The notes beneath the pieces were generated by a model. It was not told the DNA's origin, did not search any database, and was given only the letters and a program-made list of their open reading frames with translations. DNA of 64,000 nucleotides from Escherichia phage vB_EcoM_G2248, in sequence record MK327932.1; one strand, written 5' to 3'. Made by a program: the position numbers and the translations under genes. Positions 2,727-31,147 of this stretch are shown here, in pieces. How positions within the stretch are numbered: position 1 is the stretch's first letter; each line of letters opens with the position of its first letter.

Positions 2727-4589
2727 TTACATGTGCTTAACGCGGTTTACCATCTCGGAGTGTTTCCCGTGGTTGAATGGACGCAGATCAACAGATCCAA
2801 GATATCCACTAACGCGACGGATAACATTCATCTTTTCCAGATTGTCATTGCCGCAATCAGGACAAACAAAACCAGACTCGGTCGCTCTCATTTCCTTAGT
2901 AGATCCGCATACATGACATACATCAGAAGGAGTATTAACACCGAAGTAGTGCAATTTATCCATTGCATAGTCTACTACAGTTTCAAGACCTTTCAGGTTG
3001 TTTTTCATGTCTGGGAACTCAACATAAGAGATCATGCCACCGGACGCCAGCCAGTGATAATCTTTCTCAAAGTCGATTTTCTCAAATGGAGTGACTTTCC
3101 GGTCTACGTCAAGGTGGAATGAGTTGGTGTACCAGTCTTTATCGGTAGCACCCTTAACAATACCAAATTGCTCTCGGTCCAGTCGATTAAATCGATAGCA
3201 AAGGCTCTCGGCTGGCGTACCGTAAAGACTAAACCCAAGTCCGGTTTCATCCTTCCATTTTTCAGTATAATGACGCAAGATCTTAAGAATATGTTTACCG
3301 TATCGCTGCGCATCTTCCGAATCAAACGGATGAACACCAAACAGGACGCTCAATACCTCATGTAAACCAATATATCCAAGAGAGATACTAGCGCGACCAT
3401 CTTTCAGAACTTCCAAAATTTCATCGTTTTGATGAATACGGAAAAATGCACCTTCTGTATACAGTACAGGAGCAACATTGGCTTTAGCCCCTTTTAAAGC
3501 GTCTACGCGACTCATGAGCGCATCAAAGCAAATAGGCATACGATTAGCTAGCTCTTGTTCGAATAGCTCAATTCTGCGCATTACAGACGCTTTACCAGCA
3601 CGACGCGCGGCAATAAGGGCAATACGCGGAAGATTTAGAGTCACAACACCTAAGTTATTACGTCCGTCTAATACTTCTTCGCCTTTCTCATTATGCCACA
3701 CACCCAGGAAGCTACGACAACCCATCGGGCTAACCGGAACACTAGATCCAGTGATACTACGGTTATTCTTCGCAGAGATATAATCAGGGTAAAGACGCTT
3801 ACTAGAACATTCCAATGCAAGTTGCTTAATGTCGTAGTTCGGATCTTCCGGTTTAAGGTTTAATCCTTCTTCTAAGAACATCACCAGCTTAGGAAACACC
3901 GGAGTTATACCGTCTTTACCTAAACCTTTAGTTCGAACTTTCAGGATCGCTTTCTGAATCAGTTTTTCTTCCCAGCTAGTACCCATACCAAAGGTTAAAG
4001 TCACAAAAGGCGTTTGACCGTTGGTGGAGAACAAAGTGTTGATTTCATATTCCAACGCTTGATACCCGTCTAGCGTTTCTTTTTCTGTCTTCTCTTGTGC
4101 ATAGAGAGTATCAGCTTTGATTCCGTAGGTTTCGGCATCAGCAAGGTGTTTATGATATGTTTTCTCAACGTATGGCGCTAAAACCTGATCGATGTTTGCA
4201 ATTGTGGTCCCGCCATATTGATGACTTGCCACCTGTGCGATAATTTGAGCGGTTACAGCACAAGCAACGCCGATCGATTTCGGACTTTCGATTTGTGCGC
4301 TACCCAATTTAAAACCATTCTCTAACATGTCTTTGAGATTAACAAGACAGCAGTTAGTAAACGGCATAGCGGGTGCATAATCCATATCATGATAATGAAT
4401 ATCACCATCTACATGCGCTTTATAGATGTGCTCAGGTAACACGGTTTTAGCAATCTGTTTAGACACAGCACCAGCAATCAGATCTCGACGTGTCGGGAAT
4501 GTTCGCGCGTCTTTGTTCGCGTTCTCTTTGCTTACTTCGTTTTCTTTACCCGTTGCGATCTCTGTAATGTCTTTGATTAGTTTTTCCAT
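2727..4589 (-). CDS. nrdD: anaerobic ribonucleoside-triphosphate reductase (glycyl radical enzyme)
   Basis: 620 aa; C-terminal zinc site CPDCG and glycyl radical motif RVSGYLG; single uninterrupted ORF. Confidence 0.9.
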   Translation of the reverse strand: MEKLIKDITEIATGKENEVSKENANKDARTFPTRRDLIAGAVSKQIAKTVLPEHIYKAHVDGDIHYHDMDYAPAMPFTNCCLVNLKDMLENGFKLGSAQIESPKSIGVACAVTAQIIAQVASHQYGGTTIANIDQVLAPYVEKTYHKHLADAETYGIKADTLYAQEKTEKETLDGYQALEYEINTLFSTNGQTPFVTLTFGMGTSWEEKLIQKAILKVRTKGLGKDGITPVFPKLVMFLEEGLNLKPEDPNYDIKQLALECSSKRLYPDYISAKNNRSITGSSVPVSPMGCRSFLGVWHNEKGEEVLDGRNNLGVVTLNLPRIALIAARRAGKASVMRRIELFEQELANRMPICFDALMSRVDALKGAKANVAPVLYTEGAFFRIHQNDEILEVLKDGRASISLGYIGLHEVLSVLFGVHPFDSEDAQRYGKHILKILRHYTEKWKDETGLGFSLYGTPAESLCYRFNRLDREQFGIVKGATDKDWYTNSFHLDVDRKVTPFEKIDFEKDYHWLASGGMISYVEFPDMKNNLKGLETVVDYAMDKLHYFGVNTPSDVCHVCGSTKEMRATESGFVCPDCGNDNLEKMNVIRRVSGYLGSVDLRPFNHGKHSEMVNRVKHM

Positions 4590-18915: not shown

Positions 18916-19107
18916 TAGATGACTCCAATATAATCGACATTTACATTTAGGGCAATGCGGTTCTTTAATATAATACCCGTCTGTCTTTGGAACACTAACA
19001 GGAGCGGTTTTTATATTGTATTCAGTGAAACAACGAAAACAAGTTACGTTTTCTACAGACTGACGTTTCACCCAATCACCGGAATAGAGATCATTTTTAT
19101 TTGTCAT
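18913..19107 (-). CDS. small zinc-ribbon protein
   Basis: CFRC...CPKCKC; ATG 19107 with RBS GGTGG. Confidence 0.4.
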   Translation of the reverse strand: MTNKNDLYSGDWVKRQSVENVTCFRCFTEYNIKTAPVSVPKTDGYYIKEPHCPKCKCRLYWSHL

Positions 19108-19552
19108 ATTCCACCACCACAATGTTAATGTCTGGAGTGGCAATATTAATGATTTCTTCTACACATTCCCACTCAAGGCCACCGATACCGCAACCGATTT
19201 TAGGAATATAGAAAGGCTGTATAGCACCTTCAAAAACATCATTGAGAGCCTCAAATCCTTTCAGGATAGCACCATATTCAGCATTTGGACCCGGTCGGAA
19301 TTGGGTATAGAGATTAACCCCGCACCAATTATAACCATTAACTTGATGCGTCCAGACACTAAACCCACCCAGCTTTTCGACCTTACCGCGAGAAGTTTGC
19401 TTGTCAATCTCTAACGCTTGCGGGAACTCTTTCGCGATCTTCGCAGCAATACCAGCGCCCATAGTATGAAAACAATTACAACCATGAATTAAATGACCTT
19501 TTCCTTGTTTAAACAGGGCGATGAGATCGCCCTTTACAGTATCAATAATCAT
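19097..19552 (-). CDS. macro domain (ADP-ribose binding/processing) protein
   Basis: HGCNCFHTMGAGIAAKIAKEFP resembles the macro-domain N-terminal motif; RBS GAGAGG. Confidence 0.55.
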   Translation of the reverse strand: MIIDTVKGDLIALFKQGKGHLIHGCNCFHTMGAGIAAKIAKEFPQALEIDKQTSRGKVEKLGGFSVWTHQVNGYNWCGVNLYTQFRPGPNAEYGAILKGFEALNDVFEGAIQPFYIPKIGCGIGGLEWECVEEIINIATPDINIVVVEYDK

Positions 19553-21039: not shown

Positions 21040-21375
21040 TTATCCTTTCTTAAACAAATTGCGAATCCAGTATACAAACGGGATTTCTTTAAACTTGAAT
21101 TTCTCTATAGTTAATTCTTTAGTAGCAAGATGAATACCATAAGCATCATGTGTCACGATATGCCATTTTCTATAGTCCAAATGTGAACAACCGTCTGGAT
21201 CTAGGTTAATAAGAGTTTCTCGCTCACTAGGATTATTTTTCCACAATTTTGTAATAGGATCGCACATAATTCGACCTAGCGTACCATGAATAATCTCACA
21301 ACGGTAAAGTTTTCCAGCAGTGAGATAGGCGCACCCGTCATAGTCGGTATAAACAAACACTTCTTTAATACTCAT
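21040..21375 (-). CDS. hypothetical protein (GCSHL paralog family)
   Basis: Start at ATG 21375 with RBS AAGGAG; motif DGCSHLDYRKWHIV. Confidence 0.45.
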   Translation of the reverse strand: MSIKEVFVYTDYDGCAYLTAGKLYRCEIIHGTLGRIMCDPITKLWKNNPSERETLINLDPDGCSHLDYRKWHIVTHDAYGIHLATKELTIEKFKFKEIPFVYWIRNLFKKG

Positions 21376-21390
21376 TTTAATACTCCTTTG

Positions 21391-21432
21391 TTTCGATGGG
21401 GGTATATTACTACCCCCGTTTTGTTGTGTCAA
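21391..21432 (-). promoter_or_regulatory. PeSL-like early promoter with palindrome GGGGGTAGTAATATACCCCC
   Basis: TTGACA at 21432..21427; the palindrome spans the -10. Confidence 0.5.
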
Positions 21433-21678
21433 CTACTTTTTCAAGATTTTTTTAATTGCGTTCCAAAGACCTTTATTCTCAGGTTGTTTTGGTTCTTCGA
21501 TCAGTGTCCATGTTCGACCGTCTAAGTGTGCACAATTTTTAAGACAAATAAAAATCTGGTGTCCCTTATCATCACGGATATAACCACTATTCGCAAATCT
21601 TTCATGTGGTGTATATTCATACAGTGTATTTGGTGTAATATACTTGCGGTTACTATAAGGTGTCATCACATACATCAT
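21433..21678 (-). CDS. hypothetical protein (GCSHL paralog family)
   Basis: Motif NCAHLDGRTWTLI; start placed at ATG 21678. Confidence 0.4.
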   Translation of the reverse strand: MMYVMTPYSNRKYITPNTLYEYTPHERFANSGYIRDDKGHQIFICLKNCAHLDGRTWTLIEEPKQPENKGLWNAIKKILKK

Positions 21679-21869
21679 GGTACTAACTCCCAACGATCAC
21701 CGCGAAGATGAGAACATCCACCATCAAGAAGTATCGTAATACGATAACCTATATCATCTTTGATGTAACCGATTGTCGGTGGATTTTCGTCGTCTCGTGC
21801 CGGGGTAAAATCATACATCTTTCCGGGCGTAATATCTTGTCCTTTATTACTATTGGTATAAACTTGCAT
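21675..21869 (-). CDS. hypothetical protein (GCSHL paralog family)
   Basis: Motif GGCSHLRGDRWELV; RBS AGGAGA before ATG 21869. Confidence 0.45.
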   Translation of the reverse strand: MQVYTNSNKGQDITPGKMYDFTPARDDENPPTIGYIKDDIGYRITILLDGGCSHLRGDRWELVP

Positions 21870-21890: not shown

Positions 21891-22589
21891 CTAACCACGG
21901 GTATAGTGTTCCAGAACAACGGTCAGATGAATATATTCTAATAGATCTTTCCAAAAGTCAACATCTGGTTCTTCCGGCATACCGTTTTTCTTTGCCTCTT
22001 CACGCGCGAGTTTAACACGCTCGTAGAGATCTTTCAATTCTTCCCGCACATTATCAAAGGTTCTTTCTCCTAACTTACACGCTAAGATAGAAGAACGTCG
22101 CGCGAGCGGGAATTGTAGATCACCAGTTTGATAGATTTCAAGTAGCTGATAACCAACACGCAGAGCATGAGAAAGATCTTTCCAGTTACTGAAATACTTT
22201 TCAGATTTGGCTACCTGTTTCTTGAGATAACCAGACAAACCCCACATACCAACATGATAGAATTTATCGCGATGTGTTCGGATGTATTCCCATTCTCTGG
22301 AGGATTCGATCAACATGTTACTAGGCGCGTGCACCATATCAATAGCGCCGATATCACCTTTACATGCCAGATTGATAAACCGTTTTAGACTGAACATATT
22401 AACGTCAATATCGTCTTTGGTGTTCTTGATACCTTGACCGCTAGTGCTTTGGTCATAGTGTTCTTTCATCGATCCTAAGATAATTTCTTTCGCAGTCGGA
22501 ACAAAGATACCACGATAATCTTTATCGGAATTTTCAGTATCAAGGCCGTATAAGTGAGATCCGAAGACCATTTTAACCATTGTATGCAT
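21891..22589 (-). CDS. Pol-beta-superfamily nucleotidyltransferase
   Basis: N-terminal signature FGSHLYGLDTENSDKDYRG (GS-x9-13-D-x-D); RBS GAGGG. Confidence 0.55.
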   Translation of the reverse strand: MHTMVKMVFGSHLYGLDTENSDKDYRGIFVPTAKEIILGSMKEHYDQSTSGQGIKNTKDDIDVNMFSLKRFINLACKGDIGAIDMVHAPSNMLIESSREWEYIRTHRDKFYHVGMWGLSGYLKKQVAKSEKYFSNWKDLSHALRVGYQLLEIYQTGDLQFPLARRSSILACKLGERTFDNVREELKDLYERVKLAREEAKKNGMPEEPDVDFWKDLLEYIHLTVVLEHYTRG

Positions 22590-22632
22590 AATTAAACCCT
22601 CAGTTGATTAAGAGATTGCATCATATCATCAT

Positions 22633-22665
22633 AAAACGAAAAAGCCAACCCTTTTCGGATTGGCT
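22633..22665 (-). terminator. rho-independent terminator downstream of the GrcA-like gene
   Basis: Hairpin AGCCAATCCGAAAAGGGTTGGCT followed by a T-run on the minus strand. Confidence 0.6.
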
Positions 22666-22675
22666 TGATGAAAAA

Positions 22676-23092
22676 TTAGAGAGATTCGGTAAAGGTACGA
22701 GCGATAACATCACGTTGCTGGTCTGGAGTCAGACTATTGAAGCGCACTGCGTAACCAGAAACGCGAATTGTAAGCTGCGGGTACTTCTCAGGATTAGCAA
22801 CAGCATCCAGAAGAAGGTCGCGACTCATCACATTGATATTCGCGTGCTGACCACCTTCGACAACCGGAGCACCATTATCTACAATCACCGGACGGAAGCT
22901 AGTTGTGTGCAGTGCCAGCGAATCGACGTCTTCTTCGGTGATCACATGGTCTTCTGCGAAAGTTTTACTAACAATTACTTTAGCGCCGATCAGTGCTTTC
23001 GGTTCGGATACCAAAATCATAGGCGCGAAGTGTCCACCGATAATAGTACCTTTATGCTCACCTTTCATGATTTGAATTGCTTTAAATTCCAT
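22676..23092 (-). CDS. autonomous glycyl radical cofactor (GrcA/YfiD-like)
   Basis: C-terminal glycyl radical motif RVSGYAVRF in a 138-aa protein; T4 is known to encode a YfiD-like protein; RBS GAGGTGA. Confidence 0.7.
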
Positions 23093-23780: not shown

Positions 23781-24356
23781 TTATTTTGGATCTGGGAAAT
23801 TCAATAGAGCATATTCTCCATAAAATTTCCTAGCTGCATTATCATAAGCGATTGCAGCTTCGATTTCTGTGTCATATTGTCCAAGAACATGTCTTTGTAG
23901 GTTGACCATTATACTAGCTCTCCATTTCTTACGCAAATCCTTCCTGTTACACTTACTAACACCCTTATACACACTAGAAAACTTTTTAGACTTCTTCTTT
24001 CTATTATGTTGATTTTGCGCGTCGGTTGCCTCCCTAAGATTTGGAGGATTGTTATTAGCAGGATTACCGTCAATATGATCAATTAATCTAACTTGCGTCC
24101 CATGTTCTAGAAACCAAACAACCCTATGCACGAATAGATGAACTCTAGGAAGACCGTCATCTCTACTATGCCAAAATCTAAGATGACCATCTTTATTTGT
24201 TCTGACTTTAACTAAATCGCCGTGTTTATATCTACTCCCTAATGGTCGTCCTTTGATAGCTTTACTATCGACTCTATAATATAAGATACCCTCTATATGA
24301 GCATATCTAAGTTTTATCTCGTTTTGTAGGGATTCATCCCAATATTTAAAAGCCAT
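23781..24356 (-). CDS. HNH homing endonuclease with C-terminal AP2 DNA-binding domain
   Basis: HNH motif LIDHIDGNPANNNPPNLREATDAQNQHN; AP2-like SSVYKGVS...WRASI...YDTEIEAAIAYDNAARKFYG. Confidence 0.75.
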   Translation of the reverse strand: MAFKYWDESLQNEIKLRYAHIEGILYYRVDSKAIKGRPLGSRYKHGDLVKVRTNKDGHLRFWHSRDDGLPRVHLFVHRVVWFLEHGTQVRLIDHIDGNPANNNPPNLREATDAQNQHNRKKKSKKFSSVYKGVSKCNRKDLRKKWRASIMVNLQRHVLGQYDTEIEAAIAYDNAARKFYGEYALLNFPDPK

Positions 24357-30419: not shown

Positions 30420-30884
30420 TTACAGTTTGGTCGTCCACTCCAGGTCTAGATCTTCGACATACTCATGAGATCGGACAATCTCTAAATCGAACTCTAGGTC
30501 AGTGCCAAATTTACGCGCACCAACATCATAAGAAAGCGTGATATGCGGTACATATTCAGGATAATCCCACGTCGCACCTAAAGCAGTGCCGATATCGTGT
30601 CTGAATTGCATGTAGTCGCTTTCAAATGCCAGCACAAGCGCATTAGTACCGGATTGAGTTTCAAACACTTTCAGATGGCATAGAGAGCCTAAGAACTTCT
30701 CCCCTTCTTCTGGGATAAACGGAACATAGACACGAGAATATAAGATAGTGCTATGCAGTTTATCACGAGGAACGGCATTAGGCAGATCGTAGAACTCCTG
30801 CAATTTTTCAATGCGGTCTAGTGTATCCTCAGTGAATTTAACCGCCGCATATGTACCTTTAACGGATTCTCTAAACGGGGTCAT
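30420..30884 (-). CDS. 57B: 2H phosphoesterase (Acb1-like anti-CBASS nuclease, gene 57B position)
   Basis: Two H-x-T/S-x motifs (HSTILY, HITLSY); located immediately downstream of 57A as in T4; track TTG start moved to ATG 30884. Confidence 0.65.
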   Translation of the reverse strand: MTPFRESVKGTYAAVKFTEDTLDRIEKLQEFYDLPNAVPRDKLHSTILYSRVYVPFIPEEGEKFLGSLCHLKVFETQSGTNALVLAFESDYMQFRHDIGTALGATWDYPEYVPHITLSYDVGARKFGTDLEFDLEIVRSHEYVEDLDLEWTTKL

Positions 30885-30886
30885 AA

Positions 30887-31147
30887 TCAAGCCTCCGTGA
30901 TCAGTTCTACTTCCTCTTCTGCGTCTTCCGCTGCTTCGTCTTTAGGGAGAAGTGCTTTCACTTCTTCGACAATAGCATCAAGGGAAACAGTCCCGTTTTC
31001 GTCTGGCTGAATACCCAGAATGCGTACCAGTTCCATCAATACACGCTCACGATCTTTCAGTTGGCCTTCTAAGAATGCGGCCTTTTCTTGAGTGTCAAAC
31101 AGACGTACTTTCAGGACATTAATCATTTGTTCATGCTGATTGGACAT
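30887..31147 (-). CDS. 57A: tail fiber assembly chaperone gp57A
   Basis: Small acidic coiled-coil protein resembling T4 gp57A; start at ATG 31147 with RBS AGGAG. Confidence 0.75.
   Translation of the reverse strand: MSNQHEQMINVLKVRLFDTQEKAAFLEGQLKDRERVLMELVRILGIQPDENGTVSLDAIVEEVKALLPKDEAAEDAEEEVELITEA

Follow-up and report, generated by a model that had tools for sequence, protein, structure and literature searches.

The locus examined here raises the question of what kind of nucleotidyltransferase (NTase) is encoded in the early accessory region of Escherichia phage vB_EcoM_G2248 and what it may do for the phage. We analyzed a stretch of 64,000 nucleotides from this phage (MK327932.1), called the window in the following, and therein a gene that occupies exactly positions 21891-22589 on the minus strand in our list of open reading frames (ORFs), starts with ATG, and comprises 232 codons and a stop. 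An original prediction, made from the letters alone, had pointed out this ORF together with a GS/DxD motif in its product and had placed the protein in the DNA polymerase beta (Pol-beta) superfamily. Reading frame and motif are real, and the superfamily assignment is borne out by matches to PF10127 and phrog_388 as well as by a predicted NTase-like fold. Judged by its sequence, the window gene encodes a two-domain NTase of the Pol-beta superfamily and is orthologous, on the Krischvirus side, to NrdC.11 of T4. The gene, its family, the T4 ortholog, and the hypothesis of a role in RNA repair are already in the literature, such that the finding is real but known.

Family assignment and orthology

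In a Pfam scan, the protein matched PF10127 with 53.6 bits against a gathering cut-off of 23 (E=3.4e-14), and its residues 7-191 were colinear with positions 24-198 of the 249 positions of the profile. The full Pfam name of this family is 'RlaP, RNA repair pathway DNA polymerase beta family'. The protein also matched phrog_388 'nucleotidyltransferase' with E=2e-79, and PF10127 was precomputed for 120 of 120 homologs among the matches listed, while the 232-residue protein matched no NCBIfam model. We consider membership of the window protein in the RlaP family almost certain. The label of a 'minimal' NTase given in the original prediction turned out to be imprecise, since PF10127 was the sole family reported at E<=1, the model for minimal NTases (MNT, NTP_transf_2) remained unmatched, and the GS...DxD signature is common to the whole superfamily and not specific to its minimal members. 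A stand-alone minimal NTase of ~100-130 amino acids was also rejected because a helical domain of about 135 amino acids is fused to the NTase domain.

The same prediction had recognized no T4 counterpart, and in this respect it was wrong. The T4-type NrdC.11 proteins of RB6, RB27, wV7, and other phages (336 amino acids, e.g., RB6_097) share ~45% identity with the window protein, distributed over two blocks, and tblastn against RB6, RB27, and others returned 45% identity with E about 1e-31. Identity amounts to 43-48% for T4-like forms and to 39-58% over the whole alignment set. Window protein and T4 NrdC.11 have in common PF10127, the catalytic motifs GS, DxD, NTKDDxD, and A-x-D-M-x-H, the helical motif WK.LSHA.R, the general location in an early, non-essential genome region, and the gene name in RefSeq. 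They differ in their neighbors, which are mobD and nrdC.10 for the T4-type genes but vs.6 and small ORFs near regB for the window gene, and in size, as the T4-type group has about 300-340 amino acids including a central insertion that is absent from the window protein.

The window is an RB49/Phi1-like Krischvirus. Over the gene region, it shows 97-98% identity to Krischvirus genomes such as RB49, Phi1, GEC-3S, and kvi, and RB49 encodes a protein with 100% identity. In the RefSeq entry for Phi1, the gene is named nrdC.11 and its product 'nucleotidyltransferase'; the RB49 copy is likewise annotated as nrdC.11. The assignment of NrdC.11 to the NTases (COG3541) was published as early as 2006 (PMC1524935). 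Orthologs of NrdC.11 are widely mislabeled in GenBank and UniRef as 'thioredoxin', 'glutaredoxin nrdC', 'pyruvate formate-lyase', or 'HNH homing endonuclease'. It looks as if these labels had spread from the gene name or from neighboring genes, the proteins themselves being PF10127 NTases.

Catalytic residues and predicted fold

The peptide FGSHLYGLDTENSDKDYRG represents residues 9-27 of the protein and contains GS at positions 10-11 and D-x-D at positions 22-24, 10 residues apart. G10, S11, D22, D24, D60, D62, and D84 are invariant in 44 members of the clade. A divergent alignment of 12 sequences, reaching down to 21-30% identity and covering Bacillaceae chromosomes, a Sulfurovum metagenome-assembled genome, a Bacillus phage, and two mycobacteriophages, retains G10, S11, S21, D22, and D24 without exception. 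Position 62 is occupied by D or E in 12 of these 12 sequences, D60 is kept in at least 90%, and D84 is replaced by E or T. The GS and DxD residues, by whose conservation the original prediction was to be judged, are thus invariant in homologs down to 21% identity. In the helical domain, the divergent set preserves G120, Y121, K137, R144, and G174 invariantly and H141 nearly so. Because invariance in homologs coincides with the Pfam and phrog_388 matches, the GS/DxD motif of the window protein is far more than a chance occurrence. D22, D24, and D62 form the probable catalytic triad, with position 62 as the third carboxylate, an assignment made from conservation and from a spacing typical of the superfamily and not from a structure.

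The AlphaFold2 model of the protein has a mean predicted local distance difference test score (pLDDT) of 91 and a predicted template modeling (pTM) score of 0.87. Residues 1-97 make up a beta/alpha NTase domain, after which helices extend as far as residue 230. Structure prediction and Foldseek comparison (see below) agree in that the fold is NTase-like, in line with what had originally been proposed.

A possible role in tRNA repair

The name RlaP was given to PF10127 by Burroughs and Aravind (2016), who, in the accounts of their work in PMC12776372 and PMC7824862, found some members in RNA-ligase operons and predicted that RlaP restores nucleotides lost at RNA ends ahead of ligation. In jumbo phages, the distribution of RlaP mirrors that of RNA ligases (PMC7824862). 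A preprint from December 2025 describes two RlaPs from Pseudomonas, PfRlaP and PaRlaP, which are encoded between rtcB and rtcA (PMC12776372). Both label RNA, while DNA and protein are not substrates; they need a 3'-OH, add 1-2 nucleoside monophosphates (NMPs) or the corresponding deoxynucleotides (dNMPs) with little base specificity, and prefer Mn2+ or Co2+ over Mg2+ (PMC12776372). On a tRNA mimic, the bacterial enzymes favor the broken end in the anticodon loop over the acceptor end, and they partly restore aminoacylation to a tRNA that is short of one loop nucleotide (PMC12776372). In the crystal structure of PfRlaP, the NTase domain at the N-terminus and a helical domain at the C-terminus form a cleft, and the last helix packs back on the NTase domain (PMC12776372). 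RlaP has been proposed as an antidote to 'smart' ribotoxins such as RloC, acting via the repair of trimmed tRNAs (PMC12776372).

The window protein shares with the bacterial RlaPs the Pfam family, the predicted architecture of an NTase and a helical domain, three conserved acidic residues, and, lacking the T4-type insertion, a similar length. The genetic setting is different: rtcB and rtcA flank the bacterial genes, but the phage gene adjoins no ligase gene. On balance, and arguing by analogy, we lean towards the view that the phage RlaP acts in tRNA repair together with Pnkp and Rnl1 as a counter-defense. This view starts from the findings that the protein belongs to the family and has the predicted fold, that its catalytic residues are intact, that purifying selection acts on it (see below), and that pseT (Pnkp) and rnlA (RNA ligase 1) occur in Phi1, which is 97-99% identical to the window over the region and carries the two genes about 75 kb from nrdC.11. 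That RNA is the substrate, how many nucleotides are added, that NrdC.11 partners with Pnkp and Rnl1, and that it serves in counter-defense would be the parts carried over from other systems.

The mechanism would then be that of the characterized bacterial RlaPs. D22, D24, and D62 would coordinate a pair of divalent metal ions, preferentially Mn2+, the broken RNA would sit in the cleft between the NTase and the helical domain, and NrdC.11 would move one or two NMPs from any nucleoside triphosphate (NTP), untemplated, onto its 3'-OH. In the infected cell, a host anticodon nuclease would cut a tRNA, with a 'smart' enzyme of the RloC type removing a nucleotide in addition, and Pnkp would turn the resulting ends into 3'-OH and 5'-phosphate. 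NrdC.11 would put back the missing nucleotide in a fraction of the molecules and RNA ligase 1 would finally seal the break, by which some functional tRNA would be regained. The chemistry of T4 Pnkp and Rnl1 is established: Pnkp heals the ends, and the 5'-phosphate ligase seals them. The proposed sequence of reactions is chemically coherent because RlaP needs and leaves a 3'-OH, matching both the output of Pnkp and the input of a 5'-phosphate ligase. The original prediction had suggested a candidate anti-defense enzyme, a guess that would agree in spirit with the published RlaP hypothesis, though by way of RNA 3'-end repair and not of signaling-nucleotide chemistry.

A number of points weigh against a repair function. 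The RlaPs assayed so far are bacterial only, and the preprint labels T4 NrdC.11 as 'of unknown function' and places it in cluster 5 of the PF10127 similarity network, PfRlaP and PaRlaP being in cluster 1a (PMC12776372). The phage clade stands far from the enzymes that were assayed, as evident from its separate network cluster at E 1e-30 and a Pfam E-value of 3e-14. Adjacency to an RNA ligase gene, the namesake feature of RlaP, is absent beside nrdC.11, although it is not a requirement of the Pfam family, and an adjacent ligase was seen at 0 of 8 other homolog neighborhoods (two mycobacteriophages, a Bacillus phage, and five bacterial loci, the latter judged by ORF lists and N-terminal sequences alone). 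Since almost all T4-like phages carry rnlA and pseT, their co-occurrence with nrdC.11 discriminates poorly. That hosts of this phage possess a nuclease of the RloC type would be an assumption. In T4, the segment from nrdC.11 to mobD.3 is dispensable under laboratory conditions and was lost from a viable genome-reduced phage (PMC9825161), which fits a conditional accessory role yet gives no phenotype. As a folded subdomain present in the T4-type protein is missing from that of Krischvirus, the substrate preference of the latter may differ. Finally, the closest solved structure among the PDB entries searched is Hailong HalB, a DNA-synthesizing NTase, although this top rank may be due only to the structure of PfRlaP missing from the PDB set that was searched.

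If the enzyme did not serve repair, it could still act on RNA. Untemplated additions to host or phage RNAs, with mRNA fragments, tRNA acceptor ends, and small RNAs as candidate targets, would mark these molecules for decay, block them, or stabilize them in the course of host takeover, independently of Pnkp and Rnl1. The bacterial RlaPs indeed label many E. coli RNAs, including rRNA-sized species and full-length tRNA, with little NTP specificity (PMC12776372), and nrdC.11 is not linked to ligase or kinase genes. Its distance to regB, which encodes an mRNA endonuclease, is about 0.8 kb, and dmd and goF-like genes annotated in Phi1 are near. The closeness to regB carries little weight, given the reshuffling of genes here between T4 and RB49. 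Against general tailing, cleavage of the RegB type should produce 3'-phosphate ends, which RlaP cannot use, and RlaP adds only 1-2 nucleotides and favors the broken anticodon loop over the acceptor end. We therefore regard such 3'-tailing as rather unlikely and stay with tRNA repair as the preferred reading.

Structural neighbors and other conceivable substrates

Foldseek searches against the PDB returned two-domain NTases of the Pol-beta superfamily only, with modest template modeling (TM) scores of 0.25-0.48. The matches comprised ANT(4'), Hailong HalB, LinB, the uncharacterized entry 3c18, AadA/AAD(9), and Tam41. In the BFVD, an identical protein was found at a TM-score of 0.97, and many 'nucleotidyltransferases' from phages and giant viruses share the fold (TM-scores of 0.6-0.83). 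When PDB sequences were searched with the single protein and with a profile of the clade, chance matches only were obtained, even at E<=10.

Taken at face value, the neighborhood of HalB would make the NrdC.11 proteins of the T4 clade HalB-like polymerases, or makers of signals or decoys directed against nucleotide- or oligo-DNA-gated defenses such as Hailong, and not repair enzymes. They would synthesize template-independent (deoxy)adenylate oligomers, possibly primed from a tyrosine of their own, as decoys or replacement signals that could, for example, keep the HalA channel of Hailong closed after phage exonucleases have destroyed the oligo-dA of the host; the Krischvirus form without the subdomain would be a differently regulated or targeted version. 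We consider this quite improbable. HalB (PDB 9dbh) makes protein-primed poly-dA and functions in host defense with the HalA channel, whereas no such partner is evident for the window gene. The resemblance is structural only, with 13% identity in the structural alignment and TM-scores of 0.37-0.48, while sequence homology was not detectable and the clade profile retrieved no HalB chain from the PDB sequences at E<=10. PADLOC gave only an insignificant, unrelated match for the 232-residue protein and no match to a defense NTase. It is the curated RlaP threshold that is passed instead, and the assayed RlaPs neither extend DNA nor label protein.

The best Foldseek E-values were obtained for kanamycin, lincosamide, and streptomycin NTases, and one could conceive of an enzyme of the ANT/LinB/AadA or MNT type that adenylylates a metabolite, a compound akin to an antibiotic, or a protein, be it of the host or a toxin. 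ANT(4'), AadA, and LinB share with the window protein the succession of an NTase domain and a helical, HEPN-like substrate-binding domain, and the C-terminal domain of the window protein resembles HEPN-like bundles, including those of AMPylated HEPN toxins. In some aminoglycoside and lincosamide NTases, the active sites are built across a dimer. A function on small molecules or proteins nevertheless appears very improbable, given that TM-scores are low (0.25-0.42), identity is only 10-14%, no Pfam match to those small-molecule families was found, the two-domain layout is generic to the superfamily, and the assayed RlaPs did not modify proteins.

The short form of NrdC.11

Close relatives of the window protein nearly all have 300-344 amino acids. 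The only short ones are the Krischvirus protein and protein P0002 (234 amino acids, 57% identical). A single block, about 100 residues long and placed between the NTase and the helical domain, accounts for the difference in length. The Pfam profile is colinear with the short forms and broken on the long ones, and distant members of the family from Bacillaceae and actinophages are also short (about 250 amino acids). For these two reasons, the insertion is specific to the clade and lies outside the canonical fold. In the model of a T4-type protein (P0017), it forms an alpha/beta subdomain at residues ~131-240, mostly with pLDDT values of 80-90, in the order two helices, five strands, and two helices. 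Searches of Pfam and of PDB sequences with the insertion alone gave no match; it might serve as an additional module for binding RNA. In a neighbor-joining tree calculated from shared columns and without support values, a long-form protein from Sulfurovum branches outside the short pair and all long phage forms, which suggests that the insertion was lost secondarily in the Krischvirus lineage.

Among Krischvirus copies, the ratio of non-synonymous to synonymous substitution rates (dN/dS) is 0.03-0.06, and the more divergent pairs exhibit 17-19 synonymous versus 2-5 non-synonymous differences. To judge from these substitutions, the Krischvirus short form is under strong purifying selection and clearly functional. 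P0002 keeps every catalytic residue and is encoded in a syntenic order of M15 endolysin, Vs.8-like protein, GrcA-like Vs.6, HNH endonuclease, and RlaP. That the Krischvirus gene is a decaying, truncated, and non-functional derivative of a longer T4-type nrdC.11, as the absence of about 100 residues, which fold into a subdomain in almost every close relative, might suggest, is hardly credible and was rejected in view of the low dN/dS, the retention of all catalytic and cleft residues, the persistence of the short form in a lineage that is only 57% identical, its colinearity with the canonical Pfam model, and a compact predicted structure with a pLDDT of 91. The Krischvirus ortholog is a naturally minimal NrdC.11 without the T4-type subdomain, and this is the modestly new point of our analysis.

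Gene neighborhood

The features of the gene are compiled in Table 1. Upstream of its ribosome-binding site, a consensus scan indicated a putative terminator-like hairpin (22666-22642) between vs.6 and nrdC.11. It is overlapped by a sigma-70-like promoter match at 22648-22620 (TTGGCT-17-TATGAT with TG), which is a pattern match only.

Table 1. Features of nrdC.11 and its immediate surroundings in the window
Feature	Position	Strand	Basis
nrdC.11 coding sequence, RlaP-family (PF10127) nucleotidyltransferase	21891..22589	-	ORF list, Pfam, phrog_388, Phi1 RefSeq name, 100% identity to RB49 protein
N-terminal Pol-beta-type NTase domain, ~residues 1-97; strands 2-9, 24-30, 44-48, 62-67, 93-96	22299..22589	-	
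G10-S11, hG[GS] nucleotide-binding motif	22557..22562	-	invariant in all three alignments
D22-K-D24, DxD metal-binding carboxylates	22518..22526	-	invariant in all alignments, including relatives with 21-30% identity
N56-T-K-D-D-I-D62 motif	22404..22424	-	invariant or nearly so in the T4-like clade; start of strand 62-67 in the model
C-terminal helical domain, ~residues 98-232; presumed RNA-binding side of the cleft	21894..22298	-	
Junction S129 to N135, where the T4-type folded insertion of ~100 amino acids is absent	22185..22205	-	alignments; Pfam colinearity; long-form model
Shine-Dalgarno GAGGG, 7 nt 5' of the nrdC.11 ATG	22597..22601	-	direct sequence reading
vs.6/nrdC.11 intergenic signals (putative)	22620..22666	-	consensus scan; pattern matches only

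In Phi1, nrdC.11 has vs.6 on one side and, on the other, three small ORFs followed by regB. In the window, the 5' neighbor is Vs.6 (22676-23092, minus strand), a GrcA/YfiD-like autonomous glycyl-radical cofactor of a kind known in T4-like phages; it matches Pfam Gly_radical with E=1.5e-15. Directly 3' of nrdC.11 are three tandem paralogous ORFs at 21040-21432, 21433-21693, and 21675-21869 (minus strand; 130, 86, and 64 amino acids), which have the core V..T...Y..T...I.L..C.HL...W in common and cross-match phrog_6261 and phrog_15978, both of unknown function. The trio is a local triplication of an uncharacterized small domain.

The original prediction had also drawn attention to a macro domain protein and Acb1 in the same region. 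This holds only loosely. Tk.4, the macro domain protein, is encoded at 19097-19552, some 2.3 kb from nrdC.11, and Acb1 (gene 57B; Pfam Acb1, E=1.5e-51) at 30420-30890, about 7.8 kb off and with many genes between. A functional module with these two proteins was rejected on account of the distances and the unrelated genes in between; their closeness reflects the general early accessory region. The window contains no tRNA genes.

Homing endonucleases seem to have landed repeatedly beside nrdC.11. An ORF with HNH_3 and AP2 domains that resembles homing endonucleases is present two genes 5' of nrdC.11 (23781-24356, minus strand) and absent from this place in Phi1. In the divergent relative L071, an ORF with NUMOD4 and HNH (3951-4547) is located immediately 5' of the RlaP gene, and in the T4-type phage RB6, mobD abuts nrdC.11 (locus L002, 4238-5017).

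Observations on more remote loci complete the picture. Phi1 possesses, besides pseT, a second short 'polynucleotide kinase' ORF (ORF229; locus L005, 17341-17817, outside the window) that adjoins nrdB. The unrelated temperate mycobacteriophage AvadaKedavra (34000-73721), which encodes a distant RlaP homolog, has dispersed genes for a Ro-like RNA-binding protein, a polynucleotide kinase, and an RNA ligase as well as a nine-gene tRNA array. As in Phi1, this co-occurrence, which speaks for kinase and ligase as partners, is one at the level of the genome only. In AvadaKedavra, Azrael100, and Bacillus phage BMBsp2, the genes for distant RlaP homologs are close to those for NrdH-like glutaredoxin or ribonucleotide reductase, which echoes the position of the T4 gene in the nrdC region and may be a coincidence.

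Implications

The window does not add a new kind of system, and a role of RlaP in repair has already been proposed in the literature. Being compact and confidently modeled, the Krischvirus protein could be a convenient construct for a first biochemical characterization of a phage RlaP and for establishing what the T4-type insertion contributes. Should the tRNA repair function prove true, T4-like phages would carry a third component of tRNA-repair counter-defense, with Pnkp healing the ends, RlaP/NrdC.11 refilling the gap, and Rnl1 sealing the break, and this would explain why a dispensable gene is so widely conserved, being present in at least 1,600 phage genome records.

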